A stretch of DNA of 44,967 nucleotides from an uncultured delta proteobacterium (GTDB lineage: Bacteria > Myxococcota_A > Polyangia > Polyangiales > Polyangiaceae): NCBI GenBank assembly GCA_963731595.1, contig CAVSWE010000003.1, positions 300,948-345,914 on the forward strand. Reading direction: 5' to 3'. Within the stretch, counting starts at the first letter, position 1, and each line of letters begins with the position of its first letter. Below, piece after piece: positions 1 through 31,056 of this stretch. The translations under genes and the position numbers were made by a program. Under the pieces are notes generated by a model. The model ran no database searches, was not told where the DNA came from, and was given only the letters and a program-made list of their open reading frames with translations.

Positions 1-115
1 CAAGCGCTTCGACGATATGCGTCTGCGGCGTGATGGGATAGGCGCAGATTACCTGGGGCCGGCAAAGCGCGATCGCCTCTGCAACCGCGCGCGATCCTTC
101 GGTCTGTTTAAGCAT
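1..115 (-). CDS. 2-oxoacid:ferredoxin oxidoreductase alpha subunit. Only the N-terminal 38 codons are present because the gene runs off the left edge.
   Basis: The reverse strand reads [38 protein letters not shown], a typical PorA/KorA N-terminus with the YPITPQT motif. The ATG at 113-115 overlaps the end of the gamma subunit gene. Confidence 0.75.
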
Positions 116-734
116 CGATCGTGTCTTTCGCTTGGGCGGCGAGCTCGAATGCTTCCGTCGCCGCGGCGACGTTCTTCTCCGCTACCGCCGCAGGAAATTT
201 CTGGCGGATGGCCGCGACGACCGAAGCCAGCGCGATCCGCTCAGTAACCGCGGCAAAGCCGCCGAGCAGCGCCGCGTTCGGCACCGGGCGGCCCACGTGC
301 TTGAGCGCAAGCTCGGTGGCCGGGAGCGAGCACAGGCGATAGCGCCCGACGCCCCGCGCGAACGGGCCCAGCCCGAGCTCGTCGAAGCTGCGCGTCGAGT
401 TGATCAGGATATAGCCATGCGGCTGGAGGCCACTGAACACGTCGACCTGATGCAGCAACGTCGGGTCCTGCACGATCAATGCATCGGGCTCCAGGACCGG
501 CTCGCGTAAGCGAATTTCCTTGTCGTCGATGCGGCAGAACGCCATCACGGGCGCGCCCATGCGCTCCGAGCCGAAGCTGGGAAACGCCTGGGCATAACGC
601 CCTTCGAGAAACGCCGCGACGGACAGCATTTCGGCGCCCGATACCACGCCCTGACCACCGCGGCCGTGAATCCGGATCTGGAACATGTCTGGTCGCGCCT
701 CGGTGTTCGCCGCAAGCCCTTGCGGCCCATTCAT
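108..734 (-). CDS. 2-oxoacid (pyruvate/2-ketoisovalerate type):ferredoxin oxidoreductase gamma subunit
   Basis: The ORF contains [21 protein letters not shown], the hallmark N-terminus of PorG-type gamma subunits. The start at 734 has AGGAGG about 10 nt upstream. The start at 686 (MFQIRIHG) is an equally plausible alternative. Confidence 0.85.
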
Positions 735-789
735 TGGGGAAAATCCTCCTGCCGACCCGGGAATTGTCCCCGTATTGCCGAAACCTATC

Positions 790-803
790 TTGACGCAGGT
801 CAA
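790..803. promoter_or_regulatory. FNR/CRP-family palindromic box TTGAC-GCAG-GTCAA in the divergent por/frd intergenic region
   Basis: A perfect 5-4-5 inverted repeat lies about 145 nt upstream of the frdC ATG and 56-104 nt upstream of the porG start candidates. It matches the TTGAT-N4-ATCAA family consensus in 8 of 10 half-site positions. Confidence 0.4.
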
Positions 804-942
804 CACTCGCCGACGGACCACGCGCTAGCTTCACGGGGCCTCGCCCGGATGACTGCAGCGGCCCGTGGACGGGCCGTTTCAGCCGGGACCGCGAGCCCGG
901 AAACGAGCACGGCGTCGACCACGCCGGGAAAGGAAGCGCACG

Positions 943-1750
943 ATGGAGCATAGCGGCCCGCTCATCGCCGGCGTCGGGCTCACCGACCCTGCCCGGCGCA
1001 GCCATTGGCCGGCGAGGCTGGACCTGGCGCAGAGCGCCTCGGGTCTCCTGCTCGCGCTTTTCATGTGGGCGCATATGGCCTTCGTCTCGTCGATCCTGCT
1101 TGGCAAGGACGTCATGTGGATGGTCACGAAATTCTTTGAAGGCTATTTTCTCTTCGGCCGGTCCTATCCGGGGCTTGTCTCGACCGTGGTCGCGCTGGTC
1201 ATCGCGCTCGTGGTAACGCACGCCATTCTGGCGCTGCGCAAATTCCCGATTAACTACCGTCAGTTCAGCACCTTTCGCGGCCATATGCGGATGCTGCGGC
1301 ACGAGGACACAACGCTTTGGTTCTGGCAGGTTGTCACTGGCTTCGCCCTGTTCTTTCTCGCCTCGGTGCACCTCTACATCATGCTTACCCGGCCCGACCG
1401 TATCGGGCCGTTCGAATCCGCCGACCGGGTGTGGAGCGACCATTTCTGGCCGCTGTATATCGTGCTACTGCTGACCGTCGAGGTGCACGGCGGGGTCGGC
1501 CTGTACCGGCTTGGCCGTAAAATGGGGTTGGTTCGCAGGCGGCGATGCGAACGCGGTGCGGCGTCGGCTCAAGCTCGCCAAATGGGCGCTGACGGCCTTC
1601 TTTCTGGTCCTTGGCGTGGCGACTCTGGCCGCCTATATCAAGATCGGCATCGAGCACCGTGACCACTATGGCGAGCACTACGTTCCCGCGGCGCAGCAAG
1701 CGTCGTCACCCCAACCCGCCGCTGGGGGCGCGGCGGGGAGCCCTCGGTGA
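943..1750 (+). CDS. frdC: Fumarate reductase/succinate dehydrogenase dihaem cytochrome b subunit (type B, Wolinella-like), with one apparent +1 frame disruption near 1510
   Basis: The ATG at 943 follows AGGAAG. The protein reads MEHSGPL...[13 protein letters not shown]...HGGVGLYRL, then the frame must shift (cttGgcc) to continue [11 protein letters not shown]...[12 protein letters not shown]. The stop overlaps the frdA GTG as GTGA at 1747-1750. Confidence 0.8.
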
Positions 1751-3765
1751 ACGTGATCTACACCGACGTGCTGGTGATCGGCGGTGGCCTCGCCGGGTTG
1801 CGGATCGGCATCGGTGCCAAACGCCGCGGCCAAGACGTGATCATCCTGTCGCTCGTCCCGCCCAAGCGCTCGCACTCTGCGGCGGCGCAAGGCGGCATGC
1901 AGGCGAGCCTGGGCAACGTCGTCAAGGCGATGGGTGACAACGAGGACGTGCATTTCGAAGACACCGTGCGGGGCAGCGACTGGGGCGCCGATCAGCGCGT
2001 CGTGCGCATGTTCGTCGACACGGCGCCCAAGGCCGTGCGCGAGCTTGCCGCGTGGGGCGTGCCGTGGAGCCGCGTGCAGAAAGGTGACCGGAAGGTGATC
2101 ATCAACGGGCAGAAGGTCACGATCACGGAGCGCGACGAAGCGCATGGACTGGTGATGCAACGCGACTTCGGTGGTACCAAGAAATGGCGCGCCTGCTACG
2201 TCTCCGACGGCACGGGTCACGCCATGCTGTACGCGATGAGCGACCAGGCAATCGCCCACGCGATCAGCGTGCACGAGCGCATGGAGGCCCTGGCGCTGAT
2301 CCACGACGGGTCGCGCTGCTATGGTGCGGTAGTACGCAACCTCGTGACCGGGAAATTGGTCGCGTACGTCGCCAAGGCTACCGCCATTGCGAGCGGCGGC
2401 GCGGGACGCCTCTATCGCGCGACGACCAACGCGGTCATCTGCGAGGGCATCGGCACGGCGCTGGCGTTGGAGACCGGCGTGGCAATGGTAGCCAACATGG
2501 AGGCGATCCAGTTTCACCCGACGGCAATCTTTCCGGCATGCATTCTGGTCACCGAAGGCTGCCGTGGGGACGGTGGATTGCTGCGCGACGCTGCGGGCAA
2601 GCGCTTCATGCCCGACTACGAGCCGGAGAAGAAGGAACTCGCCTCGCGCGACGTCGTATCCCGGCGCATGGAAGAGCACATCCGCAGGGGCGCGGGCGTG
2701 AAGTCACGGTTCGGCGAGCATCTGTGGCTCGACATCACCCTGCTCGGGGCCAAGCACATCGACAGCAACCTGCGCGAAGTGAAGGAGATCTGCCACTATT
2801 TCCTCGGCATCGATCCGATCAAGGATTGGATACCGGTGCGACCGGCACAGCATTACACGATGGGCGGGATCCGGACCGACCACACCGGCGGTAGCCCGAC
2901 GCTCAAAGGACTCTACGCCGCCGGCGAAGCCGCGTGCTGGGACCTGCACGGCTTTAACCGCCTGGGTGGAAACTCGGTCGCGGAAACCGTCGTCGGCGGC
3001 ATGATCGTGGGCGAGTTCATCGCCGATTTCTGTGCTCGTCCCGAGAGCAACCTGCAGTTCTCCACCGGCCTGATCCGCGAATTCCTGGAGCACGAGCAGG
3101 CCAAGCTCGACGCGCTCGCCGGTAACCGGGGCGGGGAAGAAGCCAACGCATTGCGGGTCCGAATGCAGGAGATCATGACGACCAAGGTCGGGATCTTCCG
3201 CACCGGCGGGGAGCTTGCCGCCGCGGTCGAGGAGCTGCAGTCGCTGCTGCGGCGCAGTCAGAACATCGGCCTGCGCTGCACCGCAAGTGGCGCAAATCCG
3301 GAGCTCGTTTCCGCCTACCGGGTCCAGAAGATGCTGCGGCTGGCGCTGTGCGTCGCCTACGGCGCGCTGACTCGGACCGAGAGCCGGGGCGCGCATTTTC
3401 GCCATGACTATCCGCGGCGCGACGACGCCGAATGGCTGAACCGCACGCTAGCAACGTGGAAGAGCGCCGACGACATGCTGCCGACGCTGGCACGCGAATC
3501 GCTTGACGTGATGCAGATGGAGCTGCCGCCGGGGTGGCGCGGATATGGGGCGAAGGACTACGTCGAGCATCCCGACACGGCGCGTCGTACCGCGGAGGTG
3601 GAGGCGATCAGGACCAGGCTCGTCAGTGCCGGCCGCGGGGTCGTACAGGAGGCCCTGATGCCGTACGCTGAGCTCATGCCCGAGCGCTTCCGCGGACCCA
3701 ACGAGCGCATCGATGAGCCGCTGCCACCGTCTCCCGCAGGCCCGCAACGACCGAGCCCGACATGA
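1747..3765 (+). CDS. frdA: Fumarate reductase/succinate dehydrogenase flavoprotein subunit
   Basis: An intact 672-aa ORF. It shows the FAD-binding N-terminus [22 protein letters not shown] (the covalent-FAD histidine context), and [18 protein letters not shown] near the C-terminal domain. Confidence 0.95.
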
Positions 3766-3822
3766 CCGGAGCCACCGCCATGGCCATCCCCGCCGGGGCC
3801 GCCTGAACGACCGCGGCGCAAG

Positions 3823-4536
3823 GTGCGGATTAGCGTCCTGCGCTACAACCCGCAGGAGCGCGGCAGTGTTCCCCGCATGCAGGCCTACGAACTCGAAGAG
3901 GCCGAGGGAATGACGCTGTTCATCGCGCTCAACGAAATCCGCGAAAAGCAGGACGCATCCCTGCAATTTGACTTCGTCTGCCGCGCCGGGATATGCGGCA
4001 GCTGCGGGATGCTGATCAATGGGCGCCCAGGGCTCGCCTGCCGTACGCTGACAAAGAACCTGGACCCGGAGATCACGCTGGCGCCCCTGCCGGTCTTCGA
4101 ATTGATCGCCGACCTTTCGGTGAACACCGGCAAGTGGATGCGGGCGATGAGCGAACGGCTGCAGACCTGGGTGCACATGCGCCAGAAAGAGGTGGACACT
4201 TCCCGGCTCGAGGAGCGCATGGAGCCGGAGCTGGCGCAGAAAATTTACGAACTTGATCGCTGCATTGAATGCGGGTGCTGCGTCGCCGGTTGTGGCACCG
4301 CGCGCATGCGCGAAGACTTTGTCGGCGCGGTCGGCCTGAACAAGATCGCCCGTTTCCGGCTCGACCCGCGCGACACGCGCACCGACGCAGACTTCTACGA
4401 ACTGGTCGGTGACGACAGCGGTGTATTCGGTTGCATGTCCTTGCTCGCTTGCCACGATGTCTGCCCGAAGGAGTTGCCGCTCGCAACGCAAATCGCCTTC
4501 ATGCGTCGCAAGATGGTGAGCATCGGTTGGAAATAG
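3823..4536 (+). CDS. frdB: Fumarate reductase/succinate dehydrogenase iron-sulfur subunit
   Basis: An intact 237-aa ORF with a GTG start. Cysteine motifs are CRAGICGSCGMLINGRPGLAC (2Fe-2S), CIECGCCVAGC and CMSLLACHDVCP (4Fe-4S/3Fe-4S). Confidence 0.93.
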   Translation: MRISVLRYNPQERGSVPRMQAYELEEAEGMTLFIALNEIREKQDASLQFDFVCRAGICGSCGMLINGRPGLACRTLTKNLDPEITLAPLPVFELIADLSVNTGKWMRAMSERLQTWVHMRQKEVDTSRLEERMEPELAQKIYELDRCIECGCCVAGCGTARMREDFVGAVGLNKIARFRLDPRDTRTDADFYELVGDDSGVFGCMSLLACHDVCPKELPLATQIAFMRRKMVSIGWK

Positions 4537-4568: not shown

Positions 4569-5575
4569 ATGAAGGTCGCAACGAAGTTTGCAACACTAAG
4601 TGTCGCACTGGCTAGTTTAGCGATTGCGTTCGGGGCACCCGCACAGCAGCCGATCATCATCAAGTTCAGCCACGTCGTTGCCGTCGACACGCCCAAGGGC
4701 AAGGGCGCGGAGAAATTCAAGCAGCTGGCCGAGGAGCGTACGAAGGGCCGGGTCAAGGTCGAGGTCTACCCGAACAGCACGCTGTACAAGGACGGCGAGG
4801 AAATCGACGCCCTGCAGCTGGGCTCGGTGCAGATGCTCGCCCCCTCGGTGGCCAAGTTCGGGCCGATGGGGGTGCGCGAATTCGAAGTCTTCGACCTGCC
4901 GTACATCTTTGACGACTTCGGCGAGCTGCACAAGGTCACCGAAGGCGCGGTTGGGAAACTGCTGTTCCAGAAACTCGATTCGAAGGGCATCGTCGGTCTT
5001 GCCTATTGGGACAACGGCTTCAAGGATTTCAGTGCCAACAAGCCGCTTAGGCTTCCCGGCGACGTCAGGGGTCTGAAGATGCGCATCCAGTCGTCGAAGG
5101 TGCTCGATGCCGAAATTCGTGCCCTCGGGGGGATTCCGCAGGTGATGGCCTTCTCCGAGGTGTATCAGGCGCTGCAGACCGGCGTGGTCGACGGCACCGA
5201 GAATCCACCGTCGAATTTCTATACCCAGAAGATGAACGAAGTGCAGAAGTATCTGACCCTGAGCGATCACGGCGTCATCGAATACGCGGTAATCGCGAAC
5301 AAGAAATTCTGGGATGGCTTGCCGGCGGATATCCGCACCATCCTCGAAGGCGCGATGAAGGATGCGACCAAATACGCCAACGACATCGCCAAGGAGGAGA
5401 ACGACAAGGCGCTCGCGGCGGTCAAGGCGACCGGGAAGACTGAAATCCTGACGCTCAGCCCCGATGCGAAGGCGGCCTGGAAAAAGGCGCTCTGCCGGTG
5501 CATCGAGAGATGGAAAGCCGGGTCGGCAAGGACATCATCCAGGAGGTCTACAAGGAAACCGGGTTCAAGCCCTGA
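4569..5575 (+). CDS. dctP: TRAP transporter C4-dicarboxylate-binding periplasmic protein DctP, with one apparent -1 frame disruption near 5491
   Basis: GGAGGA precedes the ATG at 4569. A signal peptide and a DctP-like body (IIIKFSHVVAVDTPKGKGAEKF...YWDNGFK) follow. After ...AKAAWKKAL the frame must change to read LPVHREMESRVGKDIIQEVYKETGFKP-stop at 5573-5575. Confidence 0.88.
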
Positions 5576-5624
5576 CCGAGCGTTGCAGCGCCTGATGCGC
5601 GAGCCGGGTTCGACGCAAACCGAC

Positions 5625-5652
5625 GCCGCTGCGGCCCGCAGCGGCTTTTTTG
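5625..5652 (+). terminator. Rho-independent terminator/attenuator between dctP and dctQ
   Basis: A 9-bp GC stem (GCCGCTGCG / CGCAGCGGC) with a 3-nt loop is followed directly by TTTTTT. Confidence 0.7.
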
Positions 5653-5694
5653 TGTGCAGCAGAACGGCGGTCGACCAACCGGGGACGCTTGCGC

Positions 5695-6306
5695 ATGCTG
5701 AAGCTCCTTGACCACCTCGAAGAGTGGCTCATCGCGCTGCTCATGGGCGGCGCGACGTTGATCATCTTCGTGGCCGTCGTTCACCGCTATGCCGCGGGCC
5801 TGCCCATCCCCGTGGTGCAGGACTGGCTGCTTGCGCTCAACCTGTCGTGGGCGCAGGAAGCATGCATCTACATGTTCGTATGGATGGCCAAGTTCGGTGC
5901 CGCTTACGGCGTGCGCACCGGCATCCACGTCGGCGTGGACGTGGTGATCAATCACCTGCCCGACGGCGTGCGCCGCAAGTTCATTCTTTTCGGACTGGGC
6001 GCCGGCGCGCTGTTCACCGGCGTGGTGGCCTCGTTCGGCGCCAGTTTCGTGTGGCAGCTCGCCCACACCGACCAGACCTCGCCCGACATGGAGCTGCCGA
6101 TGTGGCTGGTCTATCTGGCCATTCCCTGCGGCTCGGGGCTGATGTCCTTCCGCTTCCTCCAGGTGGCGTGGAACTTCTGGCGCACGGGCGAGCTGCCGCA
6201 TCACGACCCGACCGACGTGGCGGGCGTCGAAAAAATTGCCGACCAGGACGCCCACGTCGGCCTGGCGCAAGACAATCTTTTTCCCGCGCCGCCTGGCAAG
6301 CGCTGA
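5695..6306 (+). CDS. dctQ: TRAP transporter small permease DctQ
   Basis: Starts MLKLLDHLEEWLIALLMGGATLIIF and is a hydrophobic four-TM type protein. Its position between dctP and dctM fits. The ORF is intact. Confidence 0.85.
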   Translation: MLKLLDHLEEWLIALLMGGATLIIFVAVVHRYAAGLPIPVVQDWLLALNLSWAQEACIYMFVWMAKFGAAYGVRTGIHVGVDVVINHLPDGVRRKFILFGLGAGALFTGVVASFGASFVWQLAHTDQTSPDMELPMWLVYLAIPCGSGLMSFRFLQVAWNFWRTGELPHHDPTDVAGVEKIADQDAHVGLAQDNLFPAPPGKR

Positions 6307-6309
6307 GCC

Positions 6310-7605
6310 ATGACCTCCGCCATCATCTTCGGGCTGTTGATCGCGCTCATGCTCACCGGCATGCCCATCTCGATCGCGCTCGGGCTCACGGTCCTGACTT
6401 TCGTGTTCACCATGACCCAGGTGCCGATCGAATCGGTGGCCCTGAAGCTGTTCACCGGCATCGAGAAGTTCGAGATCATGGCCATCCCCTTCTTCATCCT
6501 CGCCGGCACTTTCCTCACCCATGGCGGGGTGGCGCGGCGGATGATCAATTTCGCCGCCTCCATGGTCGGCCATTGGCATGGAGGGCTGGCGCTCGCAGGC
6601 ATCATCGCCTGCGCGATGTTCGCGCTTGTATGCGGTTCGAGCGTCGCCACGGTGGTGGCCATCGGCTCCATCGTGCTGCCGGAGATGGTCAAGCGCGGCA
6701 TCCCCATGGACTTCGGCGCCGCCGTGATCACCGTCGCCGGTTCGCTCGGCATCCTGATGCTGCCGTCGATCCCCAAGGTCATCTACGCGATCGCCACCAA
6801 CACCTCGATCGGCGCGTTGTTTGTCGCCGGCCTGCTGCCGGGGATCCTGCTGACCACGATGCTCTGCCTGGTCACCTGGTATATCGCCAAGAAGCGCAAT
6901 TACCCGCGGCTGCCGCGCGAAAGCTGGGGCGCGCGCTTCAAGGCGTTCCGAGAGTCCGTCTGGGGCCTGATGCTCGTGGTCATCATCATCGGCGGCATCT
7001 ACTCGGGGATCTTCACCGCCACCGAGGCGGCCGCGATGGCCGCGGTGTACGCGTTCTTCGTGTCGGTGTTCGTGTACAAGGCCATGCCGCTCAAGGATTT
7101 GCGCAAGGTGCTGCTGACCTCGGCCAACATGAGCGCAATGCTGCTCTACATCATCACCAACGCGGCACTGTTCTCGTTCATCCTCACCAACGAGAACATT
7201 CCGCATGCCCTGGCGGACTGGATTATTGCCAAGGATCTGGGCTGGGTGGGGTTCCTGTTGCTGGCCAACGTGCTGTTGCTCCTGGCCGGCAATTTCATGG
7301 ACCCGTCCTCGGTCATTCTCATCATGGCGCCGATTCTCTACCCCGCGGCGATGACGCTCGGGATCAATCCGGTGCATCTCGGCATCCTGATCGACGTCAA
7401 CATGGAGGTCGGGCTCTGCCATCCCCCGGTGGGGCTCAATCTGTACGTGGCCTCGGGCATTTCGCGCCTCGGCATCACGCAGCTGACCAAGGCGCTGGTT
7501 CCCTGGCTCGTCACCATGCTGATCTTCCTGGTCATCGTCACCTATTGGCCGGCGCTGTCGACCTGGCTGCCGCAGAAGATGGGTATGATGGGGCCGTTGC
7601 CCTAG
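6310..7605 (+). CDS. dctM: TRAP transporter large permease DctM
   Basis: An intact 431-aa polytopic membrane ORF that starts 4 nt after the dctQ stop. It has a DctM-like sequence throughout. Confidence 0.92.
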   Translation: MTSAIIFGLLIALMLTGMPISIALGLTVLTFVFTMTQVPIESVALKLFTGIEKFEIMAIPFFILAGTFLTHGGVARRMINFAASMVGHWHGGLALAGIIACAMFALVCGSSVATVVAIGSIVLPEMVKRGIPMDFGAAVITVAGSLGILMLPSIPKVIYAIATNTSIGALFVAGLLPGILLTTMLCLVTWYIAKKRNYPRLPRESWGARFKAFRESVWGLMLVVIIIGGIYSGIFTATEAAAMAAVYAFFVSVFVYKAMPLKDLRKVLLTSANMSAMLLYIITNAALFSFILTNENIPHALADWIIAKDLGWVGFLLLANVLLLLAGNFMDPSSVILIMAPILYPAAMTLGINPVHLGILIDVNMEVGLCHPPVGLNLYVASGISRLGITQLTKALVPWLVTMLIFLVIVTYWPALSTWLPQKMGMMGPLP

Positions 7606-7701: not shown

Positions 7702-7953
7702 ATGCGGCTCGCAAAGTTCGTCAAGGTACGCGAGGAGAAATTTGGCGGCGTCCTCTTCGAGACGCGCTCGGAGAAGGTTTTTACGCTCAATCCAACGGCC
7801 ATGGCGGTCGTGCGCGAGATCGAAGCAGGCCATGACGAGCGCGAGATCGCCATGCGACTGAAGGCGCGCTTTAACGACAGTACCGACGTGATCGAGCGCG
7901 AAGTCGTCGCGTTCATCGCGGAGCTGCGGCAGAGAAGCCTTGTCGAGGGTTGA
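7702..7953 (+). CDS. PqqD/MftB-like peptide chaperone (RiPP recognition element protein)
   Basis: An 83-aa protein, MRLAKFVKVREEKFGGVLFETRSEKVFTLNPTAMAVVREIEAG... The R-E-x-FGgvL segment and overall size resemble the MftB RPExFGAL/PqqD family. Its end overlaps the next gene. Confidence 0.75.
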   Translation: MRLAKFVKVREEKFGGVLFETRSEKVFTLNPTAMAVVREIEAGHDEREIAMRLKARFNDSTDVIEREVVAFIAELRQRSLVEG

Positions 7954-8959
7954 GCGCGTGACAACATTGGCAACGGATAACGGACCCGACTCCGCGATCC
8001 CAGCGACGACCTCGACCTACGCCTGCTCGGAGGACCTCGCCGCGCCACTCTACGTGGCCTGGCAGATCACCAACGAATGCAACCTCGCCTGCCTGCACTG
8101 TATCGAGGAGAGCGGGCCGGGCAAGGCGTTCGCAGATGAGCTCGACGCGGCGCAGATATTCTCGGTGCTCGACCAGTTGCTGGACCACCAAGTCCCCTAC
8201 ATGTCCTTCTCGGGCGGCGAGCCTATGCTGCATCCGCAGTTCTTCGAGATGGTGGAGCACGTCTGCGCGCGTGGCGCCCAGCTCAAGATCGAGACCAACG
8301 GTCATTATCTGTCCGCCGAAAACTGTGCGCGGATGAAGGAACTCGGCGTCAAGGCGGTCCAGGTGAGCCTCGACGGCGCGTCCGCCAAGACGTTCGAGCG
8401 TATGCGCGTGCGCGGGAACTTCGATCGCACGCTCGATGGCCTGCGCAACCTTCGCGCGGCAGGCGTGCCCGTGGAGATTAACTTCTCGCCCGCCTGCTTC
8501 AACGTCCATGAGATCGGCGCGGTCGTCGACCTCGCATACAAGCTGGGCGCATACAGCTTCTACACCGGGACGCACGATGTACACCGGCAACGCCGTCAAG
8601 GCTTGGCGCCACCTGGAAGTTTCGGAGCCGAGCAATACGAGGCGTTCTTCGCTGTTCTGCGGCAAAAAGCCGAGGAGTACCACGGCCGCATGCGCGTCTA
8701 CTTTCACGAGGCGGGGTTGCTCGAGGAGCTGCGTTATCGCCTGCAGCACCCGGCTGCGCTGCTGATCGTGCTCCCGAACGGCCTGGTCAAGCTCATCAAC
8801 GCCTTGCCCTTCGTGTGCGGCGATTTTCGCCGCCAGACGCTGCGGGAAATCTGGGCGAATTTCCGCCGCGCCTGGCACGACCCGCGCGTGGCACAGTTCG
8901 TCGACGAGCTTGGCACCGACCCGGGCGGACACGGACGCTGCACCAATGGGTCTATCTTT
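7940..8959 (+). CDS. Radical SAM peptide-maturase-like protein, paralog 1 (MftC/PqqE-like N-terminal half, no SPASM cysteine cluster), frame-disrupted
   Basis: Motifs present: WQITNECNLACLHC (CxxxCxxC), FSGGEPMLHP, LKIETNG, VQVSLDGAS. Around 8568-8627 the paralog-conserved segment TGRTMYTGNAVKAWRHLEVS lies in another frame, implying two compensating shifts. The C-terminal LIVLPNGLVKLINALPFVCGDFRRQTLREIW is conserved. The true stop is uncertain: 8957-8959 if shifted at aatggg, otherwise the ORF runs to 9112. The start is TTG 7940 or GTG 7958. Confidence 0.75.
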
Positions 8960-9897
8960 GACTGCGCTGCCCGTGCGATCCGGCCGTTCGGCGCGCACGG
9001 CGCTGCACCGGCTGCTCGCCGTTTGCCGCCTGGTGCGCTACCGGTTTTTCCTATATGCCGGGCTGCTGCCGTATCTGCTCGGCGCGGCCTGGGCCTACGC
9101 TCGCGCTGGTAGCCTTCGACGCGCCGATTTTCTGGAGCGGCCTCGCGGGTGTAGTGCTCGCCGTAATCGGCGTCGAGGCATTCAACGAGTATTTCGATTC
9201 ACGCATGGGCACCGACCGCGTCTTCAACCCGGCCGAACTCCCGCCGATGTCTGACGCAGTGCTCTGGTTGGGCATTGCGGCCTTCGCCGGCGCGCTGGCG
9301 GTCGGCATCTACCTGACCGTGCGTGGCGGCTGGCCGATCCTGGCCTTCGCACTCCTGGGTGGAACGGCGGCGATCTTTTATGTGGCGCCCCCGATACGCT
9401 GGGCCTATCGTGGCCTGGGCGAACTGGTCATCGCCCTGTCCTACGGGCCCTGGATGGTACTGGGCAGCCTCTACCTGCAGAGCCAGGCGCTGTCGTGGGG
9501 GGCGCTCTTCGCGTCGCTCGTACCGGGATGCCTGATCATGGCGCTCGCGGTCGTCAACGCGATTCCCGATTACCACCAGGATCGCTTGGTCGGCAAGCGC
9601 AATCTCGTCGTGCGGCTCGGCCGCCGGCGCGCGGTTTGGCTGTATCTTGCCCTTGCGGCAGGCGGACTGCTGGTGGTGCCGGTCGGCGTAGCGAGCGGCA
9701 TCTCCCCGCCACCTGCCTGGCGGCCTTACTGGCGGTGCCGCTGCTCGTGGCCAGCGGCCGCTGCGCGCTGCGGCACTTATGAAACACCGCGCGCCTTTGT
9801 TCCCGCCGTGCGCAGCATCGTCGGCTGCTATCTGGTCGCCGTCGTGCTGTTCACCGCCGGCGTCCTGTGCAGTGGCGTAGCGTCCTTGCGCCCATGA
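8946..9897 (+). CDS. UbiA-superfamily (MenA-like) polyprenyltransferase, frame-disrupted
   Basis: First Asp-rich motif is AFNEYFDSRMGTD (NxxxDxxxxxxD form). Second motif is IPDYHQDRLVGKRNLVVRLG (MenA-like DxxxDxxxGKxxL). The protein is multi-TM and hydrophobic. Frame changes are needed near 9099, near 9700 and near 9775, where the alternate frame gives the hydrophobic LAALLAVPLLVASG. Its TGA overlaps the next ATG (ATGA at 9894-9897). Confidence 0.75.
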
Positions 9898-10856
9898 ACT
9901 GGATCGATCGCCTGCGCGCGCCGCTGTTCGTGTCCTGGCAGATCACGCGCGACTGCGACCTGTGCTGCCTGCATTGCTGCACCGAGTCGGCGCCGGGGAA
10001 GCGGTTGCCGGACGAACTCGACGCTGCCGAAGCGACGTGGCTGGCCGAGGAGATCGTCCGCAACGCAGTGCCCTACGTGATGCTTTGCGGCGGCGAGCCT
10101 TTGGTCGTGCCGCACTTTTTCGCCCTTGCCGAAGTCGCTGGGGCGGGCAGGCGTCCAGCTGAAGATCGAGACGAACGGGCAGCGCTTCGATGCCAAACTC
10201 GCCGCCCGGCTCGCCCGCCTGCCCGTCCGGTCGGTACAGATTAGCCTGGACGGCGACACACAGGAGGTCTACGAGCGCCAGCGGCCCGGGCGGCTTCGCT
10301 CGCCAAAGCCCATGCGGCCTGCCGCGCCGCTCGTGCGGCCGGGCTGCCGCTCGAAGTCACCTTTGCGCCGACCCGGCTCAACATTCACCAGGCCGGGCCG
10401 GTCATCGAGCGGGCGCGGGCGCTTGGTGCCTTTCGCTTCAATACCGGGCGGCTCATGCGCATCGGCACCGCCGCGCGGCTGTGGGAGAAGCTCGAGCCTT
10501 GCCGAGGAGCAATACCGGGAATTCCGCGCCTGTTGAACCGCATGGCCCGGCGCCTAGAGGGGCAACTGGAGATTTGCCATGCTCCGTTTGACCTCGCGGA
10601 AGGGCTGCGCGGCAGCCTCCAGAACGCCGCCGGCAACCCTGCTCGTGCTGCCCAACGGCTGGGTCAAGGTTGCCGCGGCACTGCCGCAGATCTGCGCTGA
10701 CTTGCGCCGCCATAGCCTTGACGGAGGCCTGGGAGGCCTACCGCAACGCGTGGCGGAGTGATACAGTGCTGGCGGAAGTACGGCGCGCGGTCGCCGATCC
10801 ATCGCGTCACGCGCGAGGCCAACAGTTGGCAGTTGTTGCCCGTCGCCCCGGTGTGA
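9894..10856 (+). pseudogene. Radical SAM peptide-maturase-like protein, paralog 2, needing about 6-7 frame changes to read
   Basis: Recognisable pieces lie in alternating frames: MNWIDRLRAPLFVSWQITRDCDLCCLHCCTESAPGK, LCGGEPLVVP, VQLKIETNGQRF, VQISLDGDTQEVYERQRPG, AAGLPLEVTFAPTRLNIHQAGPVIERARALGAFRFNTGRLMRIGTAARLWEKLEP, EEQYREFRA, LNRMARRLEGQLEICHAPFD, LLVLPNGWVKVAAALPQICADLRRHSLD, EAWEAYRNAWRSDTVLAEV. The stop is at 10854-10856 or 10859-10861. Confidence 0.7.
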
Positions 10857-10871
10857 CCTGACGGAGGGAAA

Positions 10872-11026
10872 ATGAGCGAGTTGAACCTGACGATCGAAGC
10901 CGCCAAGACCGGCGACGAACGCAAGACCGATACGGTGCAGCCGGCGCAAAAGCCGCATGGGAAACGCCCAAGCTCGAGGACGTGTCCGAGCAGGTGATGG
11001 CCCAACCGTATATCCGCTTCACCTGA
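10872..11026 (+). CDS. Candidate precursor peptide (PqqA/MftA-like), with one frame disruption in an A4 run
   Basis: GGAGGG sits 3-4 nt before the ATG at 10872. Frame 0 reads MSELNLTIEAAKTGDERKTDTVQPAQK, and after the aaaa run at 10948-10951 the -1 frame reads AAWETPKLEDVSEQVMAQPYIRFT-stop at 11024-11026. The second frame has no start codon of its own upstream. The gene lies between radical SAM paralogs 2 and 3. Confidence 0.6.
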
Positions 11027-11045
11027 GATACCCAGAACTTTCGCA

Positions 11046-12013
11046 ATGCCGGGGCGTTCGGTAGAAGAGTACCGAGCACCCCTTTTTCTTGCCTGGCAGC
11101 TGACCAACCGCTGCGCTGCGCGCTGCATCACCTGCTGCGAGGAATCCGGTCCCGATAAGGCATGGGGCGATGAGCTTTCCCGTGACGAGGCGATCGCGCT
11201 TGCACGGCGCATCGCGGCGTTCGGCATCGCCTACGTTGCCTTCGGCGGCGGCGAGCCGCTAGGTGTACCGCATTGCTGGGATCTGCTCGAGCTGCTCGCC
11301 GCGGCCGGCATCGCTCTTAAGATCGAGACCGACGGCAGTCACATCGACGCTTCCGCGGCCGATCGGCTCTCGGCGCTCGGCGTCGAGTGCATCCAAATTT
11401 CGGTCGACGGAGCGACAGCGGCGACGCATGAGCGCGTGCGTCCGGGATCGAGCTTCGCCGCGGCGGTCGCCGCCATCGAGCGACTGGTCGCGCGCGGTCG
11501 TGCACCGCAATTGGTGTTCGTTCCCACCCGCTTCAACTGCACGAGATCGTCGCCGCGTTCGATCTGGCGGCAACGCTCGGCTGCGGCGCATTCGTCACCG
11601 GCCCGCTGATGCGCATCGGCCGCGCCGCGGGCGCACTGGCAGCGCATCGCCTGCAGCAGACGAGGAGTGGCGCGCCGCGGTTACCGCGTTGAGAGAACGC
11701 ACCGCGTCGATGCGGCCCCGGAATGGCCCTTGTCGATCTATCCTTGGGACATTCGTTGCGGAGATGGAAACGCGGCTCGAGCGACCGCAGGCGATGCTGC
11801 TGGTCGTGCCCAACGGCAAGGTCAAGCTGCTCAATGCGCTCCCGTTCGCCGCCGCCGACCTGCGCCGCGATTCGCTCGAGGACGCGTGGCGGGCCTATCG
11901 CGACGCCTGGCATGCGCCGGAGGTGCGCGAATTCATCACCCGCTGCCGCAGCCAATCCAGCGCTGCTGATGCACGCCAATGAGACATGGCCGATGGTTAG
12001 GAACGACGGTTGA
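11046..12013 (+). pseudogene. Radical SAM peptide-maturase-like protein, paralog 3, needing about 5-6 frame changes to read
   Basis: Recognisable pieces: APLFLAWQLTNRCAARCITCCEESGPDK, FGGGEPLGVP, ALKIETDGSHI, IQISVDGATAATHERVRPGSSF, FVPTRFN then LHEIVAAFDLAATLGCGAFVTGPLMRIGRAAG, DEEWRAAVTALRER, EMETRLERPQAMLLVVPNGKVKLLNALPFAAADLRRDSLEDAWRAYRDAWHAPEVREFI. The C-terminus is either ...SAADARQ (stop at 11982) or NPALLMHANETWPMVRNDG (stop at 12013). Confidence 0.7.
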
Positions 12014-12112: not shown

Positions 12113-12442
12113 ATGCATCGACTGACATTGGGACTACTCGCCGCCTGCACCGCTGGCGCAATCGCGGTTGCGGCCCAGCCAGCGCCGGACAGCTCCCGCG
12201 GCGAGCTCCTCTATTCCACCCATTGCATCGGTTGCCATAGCGCGCAGGTGCATTGGCGCGAAAAGAGGCTGGCGACAGACTGGGCAAGTCTCAGGATGCA
12301 AGTATTTCGATGGCAGATGAACACGGGCCTCGCCTGGAGCGACGAGGACATCGTCGCTGTCACCCGCTATCTGAACGATCTCTACTACCGTTTTCCGACG
12401 CCGGACAGGCCGGTGGCATTTCAGGGGTCGTCGGGTAACTGA
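12113..12442 (+). CDS. Small periplasmic monohaem cytochrome c
   Basis: An intact 109-aa ORF with a signal peptide (MHRLTLGLLAACTAGAIAVAAQP) and a single CIGCH haem-binding motif. Confidence 0.8.
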   Translation: MHRLTLGLLAACTAGAIAVAAQPAPDSSRGELLYSTHCIGCHSAQVHWREKRLATDWASLRMQVFRWQMNTGLAWSDEDIVAVTRYLNDLYYRFPTPDRPVAFQGSSGN

Positions 12443-12585: not shown

Positions 12586-13095
12586 CTAGCTTGGCCGCCG
12601 CTGCAATAACGTGCCCAGGAGCAGAGCGAAGCCCAGGAAAATGACAAGCGACGCTTGCGCCAGAGTAAGTCCCAGGATCTTAAAGGACGTATCGGAACAG
12701 TCTCCCGTGGCATGCAGCAGTTGGGTCAGTACTTCGCTGACCGCCATGGTGTCCAGCATGTAGGCCAGGCCGGCACTGCAAGAGGCGACGCTTGGTGCCG
12801 GAAAAAGTTGCAGGTACGTCTGATAGCCGGCGACCCCGAGTCCTTCCAACGTCAGGATCGCAGCCATCCAAAGGAGAGCCCGCTGTACTCGACCTTGGGG
12901 CCGCGCCACGGCTGCGGCAAAGAAGACGGGTATCAGGCCAAGATACGTGAGCCGTTGGATGATGCACAAGGGGCACGGTTCGATCCCCAGTATGTGCTGG
13001 ACAAAAAAGCTTGCACCGACAAGACCGGTGCAGGTCACTCCAAGCAAGATCGAAACTTGGGCAGGAGAAGTCAGCACACGCGAAAGCCTATTCAC
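12586..13095 (-). CDS. dsbB: Disulfide bond formation protein B
   Basis: An intact 169-aa four-TM protein with CPLCIIQR in the first periplasmic loop and a second Cys pair region (SCSAG ... DCSD). Confidence 0.85.
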   Translation of the reverse strand: MNRLSRVLTSPAQVSILLGVTCTGLVGASFFVQHILGIEPCPLCIIQRLTYLGLIPVFFAAAVARPQGRVQRALLWMAAILTLEGLGVAGYQTYLQLFPAPSVASCSAGLAYMLDTMAVSEVLTQLLHATGDCSDTSFKILGLTLAQASLVIFLGFALLLGTLLQRRPS

Positions 13096-23866: not shown

Positions 23867-24490
23867 CTACGCGAGGTTGTCGCCGGCAAAGCCCCAGTTG
23901 ATCAGTTTGTCGAGCACGGCATTCACGTAGTCCGCGCGACGGTTCTGATAATCCAGGTAGTAGGCGTGTTCCCATACGTCGATAGCCAACAGCCGCTTCA
24001 CGCCCTTGGTCAGGGGCGTCTCTGCATTGCCAGTCTTGACCACTTTCAGCTTGCCTGCTTCCTGCACGAGCCATGCCCAGCCGCTGCCGAATTCGCTCGT
24101 CGCCGCCATCGCCAGGTCCCTCTTGCACGCATCTAGATTGCCGAATGAAGCCTCGATCTTTTGCTTCAGTGCCGCCGGAGGCTCACCGCCGCCCTTCGGT
24201 CGCAAGCTACGCCAATAGAAGGTGTGGTTCCACGTCTGCGCTGCATTGTTGAAGATCGCAACCTTGTCGGCTTTGCCGGTTGTCTCGGCGATGAGTTTCT
24301 CCAACGAGAGGCTGGCGAGTTCGGTCCCTGCTAGAAGCTTGTTTAGGGTATCGACGTACCCTTTGTGGTGCTTGCCATAGTGGAGCCCTATCGTCCTACC
24401 GGAAATTACGGGATCCATCGCGTTTTCCGCGTAAGGCAGGGGCGGTAGAACATGCAAAGTTGTTTTTTCGATCACGTCAATGTCGCTCAT
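23867..24490 (-). CDS. sodB: Fe/Mn superoxide dismutase (Fe-type features)
   Basis: [28 protein letters not shown] at the N-terminus, [14 protein letters not shown] in the middle, and [15 protein letters not shown] at the C-terminus. AGGAAAG precedes the ATG at 24490. The ORF is intact. Confidence 0.93.
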
Positions 24491-24856
24491 TTGATCTTCC
24501 TTTCCAATAATGTTCATCCGATGTTCGCAGACTATGAATCGACGCACGGGAACCAGCTGTGCACTTTCAAATTACTCAAGTAGGACCGCCCGCGACCATT
24601 ACTCCCAAGTACCACATTCGCTTTGCGGTCGATCTTGGCACGGTCTGCTGCACGCAGGTCCCCACCGCGAAACTGCAGTGCGGCGTGAGCGGCGGCGGAA
24701 ATGCGCTCCGAGGCGTAACCCGCTGCAGGCGAGTTCCCGGGGGCGGACACGTCGTCGCGCCAGGCGAGATGCCCGCCCCTCCTGATTCCCAACTTCATCA
24801 TTAAATAAAGGTTCGCATCCGTTTGCGAAAGTGACAATAAAACCGTAGTGCGCGTC

Positions 24857-25463: not shown

Positions 25464-26699
25464 TTAATGCCGATTCTGGTAGTTCAAGGATTGATGAAAC
25501 GAATCGCGCTGCCAGTCTGGCATTTCGCCGTAAGGATACTCGTTCGAAATCCGGCGACCCGACGCGATGCCGTTGTATAGACCTGGAAGCGATGCATAGT
25601 CGCCTGGGCCGAACGTTCGGCATTCGCCGCGGAAATTCGCATCGCTGCAGAAGATCCAGTAGCCGCGATCGACCCGCAGCGACGACGCTCGTTCGGTGAA
25701 TTTGTCATACAGGTCATCCTGGCCCTCGCTACTGAGACGGAATTCACGGCCGGTGAGGTTGGGTCCCGAAAACAGCGTGGCGCTGGCGCGACCGCGTATT
25801 CCGTCGCGTGGCATTTCGCCGCGCTGATCGTAGGACGGGCGAACCGAACTGATACGACCGCTGAGACCGCCGAGTTCCGCATATCGACCCGGAACGAAAA
25901 TTCGACAACCGCCGCGGAAATCGGCGTCCACGCAAAGCTCCCAAGCGCCGCCCTCGACGATCGCTGATTGATATCGCTCAACCGCGTGCGATGAAGCAAA
26001 ATTGGGATCCGGTTGGTCTATCATAAATTTGCTTCCGCCAAAATTCTCGGACTCAAAGAATATGATGCCTCCTTTTGCTCGCGGCGTAATAGCCGGCGGT
26101 GGCAGTGTCGCCATCGGTACCGAAAGCGGACGCGCAGAGCTGATGCGACGCGACCAAGCGTCGAGGATCGGGTAACGGCCCGGGCCTAGGGTCGTGCAAT
26201 CGCCACCGAAGTTAGAGGCGGCGCAGACTTCCCATGCTCCTCCTTCCACCACTGCCGATTGGGGCCGGCCATTAAAGCCGCTCGGACCGAAATTTGACAG
26301 CGTCCGGTCGGTCGAAATTTGATGGCCGCCGAAGTTTTCGTTTTCATAGAATGTGATGCTACCGGTAGGCTGTAACCCTATTACGGGTGTTGTACCAACC
26401 GGCCGTGCGGAGCTGACCCGCCCCGACAGTCCACCGAGGCTTGGATAACGACCGGGCGCGAGGACCGTGCAGCCACCACCGAAATTCTGGTCGAGACACA
26501 GCTCCCATGAGTTGCCGTCGACGATAGCCGATTGCGCACCGTTGTTGAAACCGACGACGCTGAAATTCGGCAGCGATTGGTCAACGGTAATTTGGTGCCC
26601 GGCGAAGTTCTCAGTTTCAAAGAACGTAACGTTGCCCATCGCCGTACCGGAGGCAAATGCCGCGATGCCAAAGATGAAATGCTGCAATAGTCGGTTCAT
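25464..26699 (-). CDS. Secreted protein with four tandem beta/gamma-crystallin (Greek-key) domains
   Basis: A signal peptide (MNRLLQHFIFGIAAFASGTAMG) is followed by four repeats of about 95-100 aa: VTFFETENFAGHQI.., ITFYENENFGGHQI.., IIFFESENFGGSKF.., ATLFSGPNLTGREF... Each contains SA.V.GG.WE.C....F.G.C....PGRY..L and ISS.RP. The ORF is intact. Confidence 0.8.
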   Translation of the reverse strand: MNRLLQHFIFGIAAFASGTAMGNVTFFETENFAGHQITVDQSLPNFSVVGFNNGAQSAIVDGNSWELCLDQNFGGGCTVLAPGRYPSLGGLSGRVSSARPVGTTPVIGLQPTGSITFYENENFGGHQISTDRTLSNFGPSGFNGRPQSAVVEGGAWEVCAASNFGGDCTTLGPGRYPILDAWSRRISSARPLSVPMATLPPPAITPRAKGGIIFFESENFGGSKFMIDQPDPNFASSHAVERYQSAIVEGGAWELCVDADFRGGCRIFVPGRYAELGGLSGRISSVRPSYDQRGEMPRDGIRGRASATLFSGPNLTGREFRLSSEGQDDLYDKFTERASSLRVDRGYWIFCSDANFRGECRTFGPGDYASLPGLYNGIASGRRISNEYPYGEMPDWQRDSFHQSLNYQNRH

Positions 26700-27668
26700 T
26701 GCTGTTGACCCCTCGTTGGTGTCCACGAACTTTAGCGTTCCGATCGAGCATAGCTGCTTGATAGTTCTAAAGTCTGGCGGAAGCACTGGAGGACGTCTGT
26801 GCGGGATCGCACACAGAGAAGTTCTTCTCCACCTACTAGCACTCGCTATAAAGGGAAAGCCGCTCAAGATCAGTGGCGACGCGGATAGCTACAACCATCA
26901 AGATGGGAACGAGGATTAACGCCAAGCAGGCACCTTGTATCGGTTCATTGATGGGTCCCAAAAATCGCGACTTGTCGGCAACCTTGCTGGCGCGCTAAAG
27001 GTCGTGCCGCGCTTTATTCAGGCGCGACAGATTGGTCAGTTCTGTAAAGAGGGCCCGACTATGGCGGCCACGTAGCTGTGGGTCTAGGCATCAAGATCGA
27101 TGACACTATCGGCCAAACGGCATAATGTCCTGTCTGGACCCATGATTTCATTAGTTATGGTCGACAGCGCCATCGAACGACCACTGTCGGCGACTTCGCG
27201 GTATGGCCGCTTTTAGCCGGGCGTTGACCGGCAAGAACGTATCTCGGTTCTTGACCGCCTCCCGTCGCGTTGCGGACTGGGTCCTCGGTGGCTCAGACCG
27301 CTTGCCTGGGCCCCGATAGGTATCGGGCTGTGTCACAATCGACCAACAAGGCCACCAGCACGACGACTACCACGGTTCCTAAGCCGCTCGGATACCACCC
27401 ATAGCTGTGATGCCATGGACCAATCCGACATTGCGCCGACAGACCGCGCGCTCCGCCATACGGCGGGAAACGTACCCAATGCTTGGAAGATTTCCCATCG
27501 GCTGTCAGTGCAGCAGCGGACACTTGCGCTGGATCGGCGAGCGCAGTGGATATGCTGGCCCATCATGACTTCGAACTCGATATTGGCGGCGCACAGCTTC
27601 GCTCAGTGCGAGGGAAGTGCGAGCAAGTACCGCGCGCAGCGGATTACGGTAAGAAAGCGGTCGGTGAG

Positions 27669-30408: not shown

Positions 30409-30993
30409 TCACCTCGACGCCACCACAAAGCGATCGGCGCTCATACGCAGCCAGGCACCGCCGGGATCGACGTCGTACGCGCGCGCCCACGCAGCAGCGT
30501 CGGTGTCGCCGTCGACATGAAATCCGTGGCGCGCTAGTAGCGCCGCCATCTCCTCCGGGCGATATCGCGATCGAAACGGCTCGCGGAGGAGCGCGGCGAG
30601 GAGGCCAGTAAAGCGGGTGGACCACTTCGGTTTGTTGTAGTGCACGAGCACGCGACTCTTCGGCGCCGAGCGTAGCTGGACCACGGCGAACGTGGCAGCG
30701 ACGGCGGCGGGCTCGAGGTACATGATCACGCCCTCCCAGACCCACGTCGTCGGGCACGACGGATCGTGTCCGGCGTCCTCGAGCGCGCCATCGAGTGCGT
30801 CGCGGGTGAAGTCGAACGGGACGAAGCGCACTTCGCGCGCCGCGACAGGAAAAGCCGCGATGCGTTCGCGCTTCTCCTTCTGCGTGTCGGGATGATCGAC
30901 CTCGAAGACGACACTGTCGGAGAGCTCCTTCATGCGCCAGGCGCGTCCGTCGAGGCCCACGCCGAGGATCACAATCTGCGCGCCCGGGTTCAT
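30409..30993 (-). pseudogene. Class I SAM-dependent methyltransferase (TIGR00027/LCM-like O-methyltransferase), probably N-terminally truncated
   Basis: QIVILGVGLDGRAWRM, VFEVDHPDTQKEKRERI and WVWEGVIMYL are typical of this family. The roughly 60-70 N-terminal residues expected are missing or overlap the divergent ChaN start, and no good start codon is seen. Confidence 0.5.
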
Positions 30994-31056
30994 CGTGCCT
31001 GGGACGAATTGCTGAGTGTGACAGGCCGAATCCAGAGCGCGATGTACACTGGTCGC

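Follow-up and report, generated by a model that had tools for sequence, protein, structure and literature searches.

We analysed a 44,967-nucleotide stretch of DNA from an uncultured delta proteobacterium (contig CAVSWE010000003.1; hereafter the window) and found that six genes on its plus strand, at 7702-12013, form an operon that, judged from sequence, is real, translated, strongly constrained and widespread. Its core is a short peptide, a chaperone of the RRE type (recognition element of RiPPs, peptides that ribosomes make and that are modified after translation), at least one radical S-adenosylmethionine (rSAM) enzyme without a SPASM domain, and a prenyltransferase of the MenA branch, a combination that lies outside all curated families. 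We give about an even chance to the proposal that the cluster makes a ribosomal-peptide-derived, polyprenylated membrane redox cofactor for anaerobic quinone-dependent respiration, most likely a quinone-like carrier. The logic by which an RRE, an rSAM enzyme and a peptide lead to a cofactor is already known from pyrroloquinoline quinone (PQQ) and mycofactocin; unprecedented here are a UbiA prenyltransferase as a core member, the loss of the SPASM cluster and a new, invariant precursor family. Full-text literature searches found no published description of the cluster, and neither NCBIfam (June 2026 release) nor Pfam holds a component-specific model for any of its genes.

Gene content was established from an open reading frame (ORF) listing and hidden Markov model (HMM) scans of the window against Pfam and NCBIfam. 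We refer to the order PqqD-rSAM1-UbiA-rSAM2-peptide-rSAM3 as type I and to the order peptide-PqqD-one rSAM-UbiA as the minimal form. The six genes of the window, all on the plus strand, are as follows:

7702..7953, plus strand: PqqD-family peptide chaperone (RRE), 83 amino acids, intact; PF05402 at 4.3e-13; the first gene in all type I loci
7958..8961, plus strand: rSAM-1, 333 amino acids in orthologs, frameshifts at 8565, 8627 and 8925; PF04055 at 2.9e-25
8946..9880, plus strand: UbiA-superfamily membrane prenyltransferase, MenA/UBIAD1 branch, about 310 amino acids, six indels; PF01040 at 3e-22
9894..10856, plus strand: rSAM-2, 318 amino acids in orthologs, seven indels; PF04055
10872..11026, plus strand: precursor peptide, 51 codons, frame broken by a 1-nt deletion at 10957; identified by conservation
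11046..12013, plus strand: rSAM-3, 320 amino acids in orthologs, seven indels; PF04055 at 1.7e-20

ORFs, HMMs and ortholog alignment thus upheld an earlier note on this DNA, made from the letters alone, which had called six same-strand genes at essentially these coordinates. Its gene identities were right: the chaperone is of the PqqD/RRE kind, the three rSAMs are paralogs that lack SPASM cysteines, and the UbiA enzyme belongs to the MenA/UBIAD1 branch. Its picture of operon-style coupling held in part. The UbiA gene does overlap the rSAM-1 stop at 8946, by 16 nt, as it does in orthologs, and in the related locus L003 it overlaps rSAM-2 by 4 nt; the proposed 14-nt overlap at 7940-7953 is doubtful, as orthologs start rSAM-1 at the GTG at 7958 and not at the TTG at 7940, and 7958 is most likely the start here too. 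The sequence GGAGG lies 5 nt 5' of the peptide gene.

The arrangement recurs widely. A scan of one genome per species returned 218 relatives, and homologs of rSAM-1 proved very numerous (70-91% identical, about 333 amino acids) under purely generic names such as 'radical SAM protein' or 'MoaA/NifB/PqqE/SkfB family radical SAM enzyme'. The best 80 of the 218, in which gene order was mapped by tblastn, fell in Casimicrobiaceae, Usitatibacter, Caldimonas and other Burkholderiales, with some Steroidobacteraceae, Acidocella, Rhodopila and Gammaproteobacteria, and included the complete genome CP019169.1 of isolate GR16-43, whose locus is L048. Every locus long enough to show the order kept the type I arrangement, and a metagenome scan that supplied 80 further loci revealed it in many contigs as well, so that it recurs in at least 80 species besides those contigs and is not peculiar to this one. 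Even where identity drops to only 40-60% (L087/L088, L089, L111 and L130) the six-gene order is retained. Such recurrence is far beyond chance, and because it spans independent assemblies we rejected a chimeric assembly as its source.

On low-GC contigs (L096, L098, L104, L109, L110, L125, L157, L175 and L176) we found the minimal form, whose rSAM homologs, where NCBI names them, belong to Candidatus Omnitrophota, Planctomycetota, Phycisphaerales and Sedimentisphaerales. The tripled rSAM gene that the earlier note had singled out as apparently new is therefore present in type I loci but is not universal: by comparison of the two architectures the conserved core is four components, and the triplication is a lineage-specific elaboration. 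Since UbiA is kept in both divergent type I loci and the minimal form, it too is a core component and not a passenger. Two local departures were seen: in L176 a PF05635 23S rRNA intervening-sequence protein gene (10992-11363) is inserted between the rSAM and UbiA genes, and in the divergent type I cluster of L087 the end of rSAM-3 shares 4 nt with a gene (4707-5435) for a DUF6624 protein, whose N-terminus looks by eye hydrophobic and like a signal peptide.

The precursor peptide is the most constrained part of the system. Its N-terminal ~27 residues are variable and K/E-rich, and are followed by WETPKLEDVSEQVMAQPYIRFT and a stop. Across 74 type I loci (72 unique nucleotide cores) the C-terminal 22 residues read W-E-T-P-K-[LM]-E-D-V-S-E-[QE]-V-[MT]-A-Q-P-Y-I-R-F-T, and the last eight, AQPYIRFT, are invariant in 72/72 unique cores; the tail (V/I)MAQPYIRFT is unaltered in divergent type I and minimal clusters. 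Nucleotide entropy by codon position in the core was 0.12/0.14/0.85, the third-position variation being synonymous. This coding-type pattern clearly marks the small ORF, which stays next to the rSAM genes everywhere, as translated and subject to purifying selection. The peptide forms 1294 clusters at 90% in the protein database, of which all the named ones are 'hypothetical protein' except one mislabelled 'prefoldin subunit 5'. Neither Pfam (E<=10) nor NCBIfam (E<=1) gave a family for it, although weak matches above about E 0.1 may have been filtered. An invariant tail with synonymous third-position variation fits a cofactor precursor such as PqqA or MftA, by analogy with those peptides, and not an antibiotic. 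The description 'PqqA-like' from the earlier note survives as a resemblance in spacing: the W-x-x-P ... Y arrangement followed by four residues, which we take to be of the PqqA type, is a lead and not a sign of membership, as no PqqA model matches the peptide and the cross-linking Glu of the PqqA E-x3-Y motif is replaced by Met or Thr.

The three rSAM paralogs share 40-43% identity with one another (rSAM-2 and rSAM-1, 42%), and all three, like the minimal-form enzyme, carry CX3CX2C and GGEP motifs. They belong to the radical SAM superfamily by PF04055 (64-90 bits against a cut-off of 29.5). A C-terminal segment, 'LPNG.VK..NALPF.C.DLRR..L..W', resembles the first SPASM/twitch hairpin; it has one Cys in rSAM-1, rSAM-2 and the minimal form and none in rSAM-3. 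Intact orthologs gave no match to the SPASM model PF13186 at E<=10, and the cysteines of a SPASM/twitch auxiliary cluster are absent. Against the curated equivalog models the rSAMs scored 101-123 bits for MftC (TIGR03962; cut-off 265), 80-125 for AhbD (cut-off 500), about 80-108 for NirJ (cut-off 515) and 62-76 for PqqE (TIGR02109; cut-off 381), the haem-modifying AhbD and NirJ enzymes being represented by TIGR04545, TIGR04051 and TIGR04055. MftC was the best NCBIfam match of rSAM-2 (107 bits), rSAM-3 (101-107 bits) and the minimal-form enzyme; for rSAM-1 it was AhbD (125 bits), then NirJ2. The chaperone behaved likewise: it is of the PqqD/RRE family by PF05402 (49.8 bits in the window and 45.4 in the divergent L087, against a gathering threshold of 23.4), yet scored 25.6 and 18.9 bits against 33 for MftB (TIGR03967) and 35 and 31 bits against 46 for the PqqD equivalog (TIGR03859).

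The UbiA enzyme is a member of its superfamily by PF01040 (79.6-86.6 bits against 34.2), and its orthologs have both Asp-rich motifs, NEYFDxxxxxD (NEYFDSRMGTD) and DYHQD. Its nine best NCBIfam matches are all 1,4-dihydroxy-2-naphthoate (DHNA), naphthoate or related MenA-type prenyltransferase models, every one below cut-off: the MenA equivalog TIGR00751 gave 71 bits in L003 and 60 in the minimal form against 102.15. With UBIAD1 (8djk) as the sole solved relative by sequence, the enzyme is placed by these matches in the MenA/UBIAD1 branch.

As no tested curated cut-off was reached, we rejected assignment of the cluster to the haem, PQQ, mycofactocin or MenA families; the best NCBIfam scores lie 2- to 5-fold below the cut-offs, and intact orthologs are unassigned to haem, menaquinone, PQQ or mycofactocin synthesis. 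Solved structures place the rSAMs broadly: the nearest relatives by sequence are SkfB, BlsE and PqqE, and the nearest folds to an AlphaFold2 (AF2) model of rSAM-1, built on a shallow alignment with a predicted local distance difference test (pLDDT) score of 63, are SkfB, PqqE and SuiB at a template modelling score of ~0.6. On this modelled evidence the fold neighbours support the general family only.

A representative search uncovered a wider group of SPASM-less rSAMs of ~320 amino acids. Members ~30-37% identical have a PqqD gene beside them, both on low-GC contigs (L085) and in RiPP-like clusters of archaeal type (L091-L093). In the archaeal-looking L091 and L092 (7739-9939), and likewise in L093 (7718-10991), a PqqD gene and a SPASM-less rSAM gene are accompanied either by a SPASM rSAM and a major facilitator superfamily (MFS) transporter or by a B12-dependent rSAM and an ABC transporter, and look like RiPP clusters. 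A different setting was seen in L090, where a SPASM-less rSAM (2178-3152) 50% identical to the minimal-form enzyme lies between hemE (URO-D) and hemH (ferrochelatase) and is followed by a flavin adenine dinucleotide (FAD) amine-oxidase-type gene that is HemY/CgoX-like by sequence, with no PqqD or peptide gene. We regard this enzyme as a candidate for a coproheme decarboxylase that works without oxygen, or for a substitute of AhbD.

The L090 locus and the AhbD and NirJ2 matches of rSAM-1, with many cytochrome genes and hemN nearby, raise the alternative that the cluster tailors a tetrapyrrole, its rSAMs acting as AhbD- or NirJ-like enzymes, its UbiA as a haem O synthase-like farnesyltransferase and its peptide only as a chaperone or regulator. 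We regard this as very improbable. The rSAM scores are 4-fold under the AhbD/NirJ cut-offs (125 versus 500), and UbiA matches MenA models, with no haem O synthase among the 17 NCBIfam families that it hits at E<=1. The ever-present PqqD/RRE gene and the invariant peptide would be left unexplained, and L090 itself has neither these nor UbiA.

The affinity of UbiA for MenA suggests another alternative, in which a soluble cofactor of the PQQ or mycofactocin kind comes from the peptide, PqqD and rSAMs, and UbiA is a separate MenA paralog that prenylates an ordinary small-molecule quinone precursor destined for the same respiratory chain. In its favour, every one of the best UbiA matches is a DHNA prenyltransferase model, we know of no UbiA enzyme that takes a peptide, and in L104 and L176 the gene adjoins a polyprenyl synthase as canonical MenA does in L098. 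Yet UbiA co-occurs with the peptide, PqqD and rSAM in both architectures and in distant lineages, its slot directly after the first rSAM is fixed, with the overlaps on both sides noted above, and it falls short of every MenA cut-off while the true MenA of L098 passes. Genes of the men or mqn head-group pathways were not seen near any locus. A single joint product is accordingly the reading that we prefer, and two separate ones seem unlikely.

The surroundings of the operon are respiratory. In the window the earlier note had described the following context, which we found as it stated:

943..4536, plus strand: frdCAB, a Wolinella-type dihaem quinol:fumarate reductase, mapped by tblastn
4569..7605, plus strand: dctPQM, a C4-dicarboxylate TRAP transporter between frd and the cluster, with dctP frameshifted
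12113..12442, plus strand: a 109-residue monohaem cytochrome c directly downstream (PF00034, weak)
12586..13095, minus strand: DsbB, a quinone-dependent disulfide oxidoreductase, convergent (PF02600 on the L001 ortholog; tblastn 100%)

The Frd orthologs in L003 match the Wolinella succinogenes quinol:fumarate reductase 2bs2 (subunit C at 1e-78, subunit A at 2e-275), and the W. succinogenes dihaem enzyme uses menaquinol. The 109-residue cytochrome was found only in close relatives (L001, L002 and L005). For a broader view we clustered the ORFs flanking 83 loci and checked representatives against Pfam, and counted modules within 10 kb of the cluster in the 51 loci with at least 8 kb upstream and at least 5 kb downstream. 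At least one quinone-linked module was present in 40/51: a NapC/NirT (CymA-like) tetrahaem cytochrome in 21, an MtrA-like decahaem cytochrome in 20 (the MtrB/PioB porin in 8), FrdA in 15, and Fdn-like Fe-S plus cytochrome b561 subunits in 8. Further repeat neighbours were 2-oxoacid:ferredoxin oxidoreductase, malic enzyme, Crp/Fnr regulators and a COQ10/RatA-type START protein.

Some of these genes lie within or against the operon itself. In nine loci (L060-L062, L102, L103 at 9145-9783, L108, L128, L136 and L138) a NapC/NirT gene (PF03264, 2e-52) sits inside the operon, between rSAM-2 and the peptide, and in 16 additional loci one lies within 400 nt. A polyprenyl-diphosphate synthase gene is directly adjacent in five: it ends at the PqqD start in L087, lies upstream in L111 and L130, and is 3' of UbiA in L104 and L176. 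The minimal form is preceded by an Rnf/Nqr-type operon in L175 and L176, by nuoH-N in L110 and by Hdr/Mvh-like genes in L104 and L098, and in L176 it is followed by an NrfD-type molybdoenzyme. Together, these data show that the operon is persistently linked, across many independent rearrangements, to quinone-dependent respiratory modules and polyprenyl-diphosphate supply. The hypothesis of a membrane-anchored redox cofactor, put forward in the earlier note, gains from the adjacent polyprenyl synthases, the NapC/CymA genes inside operons and the quinone-dependent neighbours, and is still unproven.

Three of the neighbouring arrangements deserve description in their own right. The operon directly 5' of the minimal cluster in L176 (4076-9503) is a hybrid of Rnf and Nqr types, its first subunit passing the RnfC cut-off and its last that of NqrF (296 versus 295). 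A COQ10/RatA-type START protein (PF03364), of a family that includes quinone-binding proteins, is encoded directly upstream of the cluster in L039 (9026-9520), L070 (8948-9415) and five other loci; this adjacency may be the coincidence of a housekeeping locus. Finally, 2-oxoacid:ferredoxin oxidoreductase genes are divergent from Wolinella-type Frd genes both in the window (1-4536) and in L003 (3025-9674), with malic enzyme near in relatives, a grouping that, from gene content, hints at a reductive branch of the tricarboxylic acid (TCA) cycle in soil Burkholderiales.

The neighbours bear also on whether the product is a lipidated RiPP, in which case a prenylated peptide would be secreted or would serve for signalling or as an antibiotic, and not as a respiratory cofactor. 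An RRE, an rSAM and a short peptide are the standard RiPP architecture, and the archaeal clusters that contain distant rSAMs of the same group do have MFS or ABC transporters as well as B12-rSAM genes. RiPP antibiotic cores are normally hypervariable, however, and this one is invariant across Proteobacteria, low-GC contigs of Omnitrophota/Planctomycetota type and other lineages. The clustered flanks of the 83 loci and the metagenome loci yielded no conserved transporter or immunity gene, nor is a leader-peptidase gene conserved with the cluster, and what does stand beside it are respiratory complexes and the polyprenyl synthase. A secreted lipopeptide of this kind therefore strikes us as improbable, and we return to a respiratory cofactor.

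Comparison with characterised systems places the cluster between peptide-derived cofactors and isoprenoid quinones. With mycofactocin it has in common that the precursor is short and its C-terminal tail invariant, that the chaperone (there MftB) is a stand-alone protein of the PqqD family, that MftC is the best curated match for most of its rSAMs, that a tailoring enzyme attaches a chain (glycosyl there, predicted to be prenyl here) and that the product would likewise be a redox cofactor and not an antibiotic. Unlike mycofactocin clusters, it has rSAMs and a chaperone below the MftC and MftB cut-offs, lacks SPASM or auxiliary-cluster cysteines, ends its precursor in ...AQPYIRFT instead of the ...GVY of MftA, and has no MftD-, MftE- or MftF-type genes among the called or clustered neighbours, having the membrane enzyme UbiA instead. 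Mycofactocin is best known from actinobacteria, whereas the present hosts are Proteobacteria and low-GC lineages of Omnitrophota/Planctomycetota type. The likeness to PQQ lies in a Tyr-derived peptide quinone (here a predicted one) from a core of ~23 residues, a PqqD chaperone (by PF05402), and PqqE among the nearest solved folds; the differences, beyond the precursor and the PqqE and PqqD cut-offs already given, are that PqqB, PqqC and PqqF are missing from the cluster and that three (or one) SPASM-less rSAMs and a prenyltransferase are present.

On the quinone side, the cluster UbiA has the Asp-rich motifs of MenA and UBIAD1, its best matches, and, as in quinone operons, a polyprenyl-diphosphate synthase may be adjacent and respiratory-chain genes are neighbours. 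Prenylation of a Tyr-derived phenolic ring, which we predict for the cluster, is also the logic of ubiquinone (from 4-hydroxybenzoate) and plastoquinone (from homogentisate). It departs from MenA in its sub-threshold scores and in the absence of nearby head-group genes, and from menaquinone in a head group that is predicted to come from a ribosomal peptide by radical SAM chemistry. Finally, SkfB, SuiB, sactisynthases and formers of 3-residue cyclophanes have in common with the cluster enzymes the rSAM core fold, the N-terminal motifs, RRE dependence and the remnant first SPASM/twitch hairpin. In contrast to SkfB/SuiB-type maturases, the cluster rSAMs lack auxiliary Fe-S cysteines and do not match PF13186, the core peptide does not vary, and export and immunity genes are absent.

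From these likenesses we propose a five-step route. The 51-residue precursor is first translated, as its coding-type conservation shows, and the stand-alone PqqD/RRE protein would then bind the conserved W-x-x-P-x-[LM]-E-[DE]-V-S segment and present the tail (V/I)(M/T)AQPYIRFT. The SPASM-less rSAMs, one in the minimal form and three paralogs in Proteobacteria, would abstract hydrogen atoms from this tail and so produce, independently of oxygen, oxidative C-C or C-X cross-links or a decarboxylation around the invariant Tyr. The nearest characterised rSAM relatives, MftC, PqqE, SkfB and AhbD, perform such oxidative chemistry. In the fourth step the MenA/UBIAD1-like enzyme, whose gene shows translational coupling to the rSAM genes, would equip the aromatic or phenolic ring so formed with a long polyprenyl chain. 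The polyprenyl-diphosphate synthase fused to the operon in several lineages would supply that chain. The lipid-anchored product, possibly after excision by an unlinked protease, would then serve fumarate reductase, NapC/CymA, MtrAB-like conduits and Nuo/Nqr/NrfD-type complexes. Each element has precedent in known molecules: the quinones PQQ, TPQ, CTQ and TTQ originate from Tyr or Trp in a peptide or protein, the rings of ubiquinone and plastoquinone are Tyr-derived and prenylated by UbiA-family enzymes, and mycofactocin is a redox cofactor that comes from a peptide and is given a tail. A more specific version, in which the product is a novel isoprenoid respiratory quinone or lipid cofactor whose head group is cut from the Tyr-containing tail by oxygen-independent rSAM chemistry and prenylated by the MenA-like enzyme, is tentative, and we hold it to be possible but doubtful.

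Several points weigh against the proposed cofactor. The examined flanks contain no conserved protease or peptidase, and the product may for that reason remain a lipopeptide. We know of no UbiA-family enzyme that acts on peptides. The low-GC locus L098 has, 6.5 kb from the cluster, a canonical MenA (TIGR00751, 127 bits against 102) that adjoins its own polyprenyl synthase, so the cluster product is not simply a replacement for menaquinone everywhere; in low-GC carriers it would coexist with menaquinone. The loci behind the neighbourhood counts are phylogenetically non-independent, and the AF2 model of rSAM-1 is only moderately confident. Lastly, the window copy is itself frameshifted.

This last point concerns the window alone. 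Relative to the intact reference L002, a short-read contig 96.9% identical to the window, we counted 25 indels of one or two bases between 8565 and 11954 (3 in rSAM-1, 6 in UbiA, 7 in rSAM-2, 1 in the peptide and 7 in rSAM-3), which leave 5/6 genes out of frame as read, as the earlier note had suspected. So many frameshifts within 4.3 kb, denser in the cluster than in its flanks, would be expected of a decaying pseudogene cluster, a condition that would touch this copy and not the family. The substitutions tell otherwise. Third codon positions account for 87/124 substitutions against L002 (70%), with 84 synonymous and 35 non-synonymous codons, and 25 indels per 126 substitutions is far beyond neutral decay. 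Moreover, indels and strain mismatches against L001 and L002 are concentrated in the same two zones, 8-12 kb (the cluster) and 17-19 kb (the hemN region); hemN and dctP (near 5495) also bear indels, and dctM, pqqD (100% identical to its L002 ortholog), the cytochrome c gene and dsbB are free of indels or mismatch clusters. The near-identical L001 (a 505-kb contig, 98.5% identity) has frameshifts of its own at different places, whereas L002 is intact. Because the substitutions are mostly third-position and synonymous and the indels track the strain-mismatch zones, the frameshifts are probably consensus errors of a mixed-strain, likely long-read, assembly and not gene decay; from the substitution pattern we judge genuine pseudogenisation quite unlikely.

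Regulatory signals and other genes of the window were also recorded. A candidate FNR/Dnr-type palindrome, read from sequence, lies ahead of the fumarate reductase genes, and a Crp/Fnr regulator gene is present:

789..802, plus strand: FNR/Dnr-type palindrome TTGACGCAGGTCAA, two mismatches, ~140 nt upstream of frdC, with a putative regulatory function
23867-24547, minus strand: Fe/Mn superoxide dismutase (SOD)
25464-26867, minus strand: four-repeat beta/gamma-crystallin protein
27669-28454, minus strand: Crp/Fnr regulator
30766-31944: ChaN haem-binding protein
32894-34516: Sel1-repeat protein
36838-38031, minus strand: patatin
42397-43176: HTH_38 helix-turn-helix protein

FNR-type boxes (TTGAT-N4-ATCAA, <=1 mismatch) number 5 in the window against 0.65 expected, at 13432, 18513, 19328, 25968 and 32838, one of them just upstream of hemN; none was found directly upstream of pqqD. 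Between dctP and dctQ is a terminator-like hairpin (5625-5645) with a 9-bp stem, 8 GC pairs and a T-run, which may act as an attenuator and so determine how much binding protein is made relative to permease. From 20000 to 44967 the GC content falls from ~0.60-0.68 to 0.53-0.60 in most 1-kb bins, with an exception at 30-32 kb (0.63-0.65), and by composition this may be a more recently acquired segment. No RNA families (Rfam) were detected in the window.

The proposed cofactor would bear directly on the respiration of its hosts. Soil Burkholderiales (Casimicrobiaceae, Usitatibacter and Caldimonas relatives) carry low-potential quinol enzymes, namely fumarate reductase, CymA/NapC and MtrAB-like extracellular electron transfer systems, and the Burkholderiales lineages concerned are generally regarded as ubiquinone-only. 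If the more specific version of the proposal is true, it would explain how such bacteria can run a Wolinella-type menaquinol:fumarate reductase and CymA/MtrAB conduits. The product would then found a third family of peptide-derived redox cofactors beside PQQ and mycofactocin, and the first that is membrane-bound. A peptide-derived, prenylated electron carrier would in itself represent a membrane redox cofactor of a new class, put UbiA-family enzymes to a new use and offer a way to a quinone-like molecule that needs no oxygen. Although it lacks annotation, the system is abundant and is present in 218 species-level genomes.

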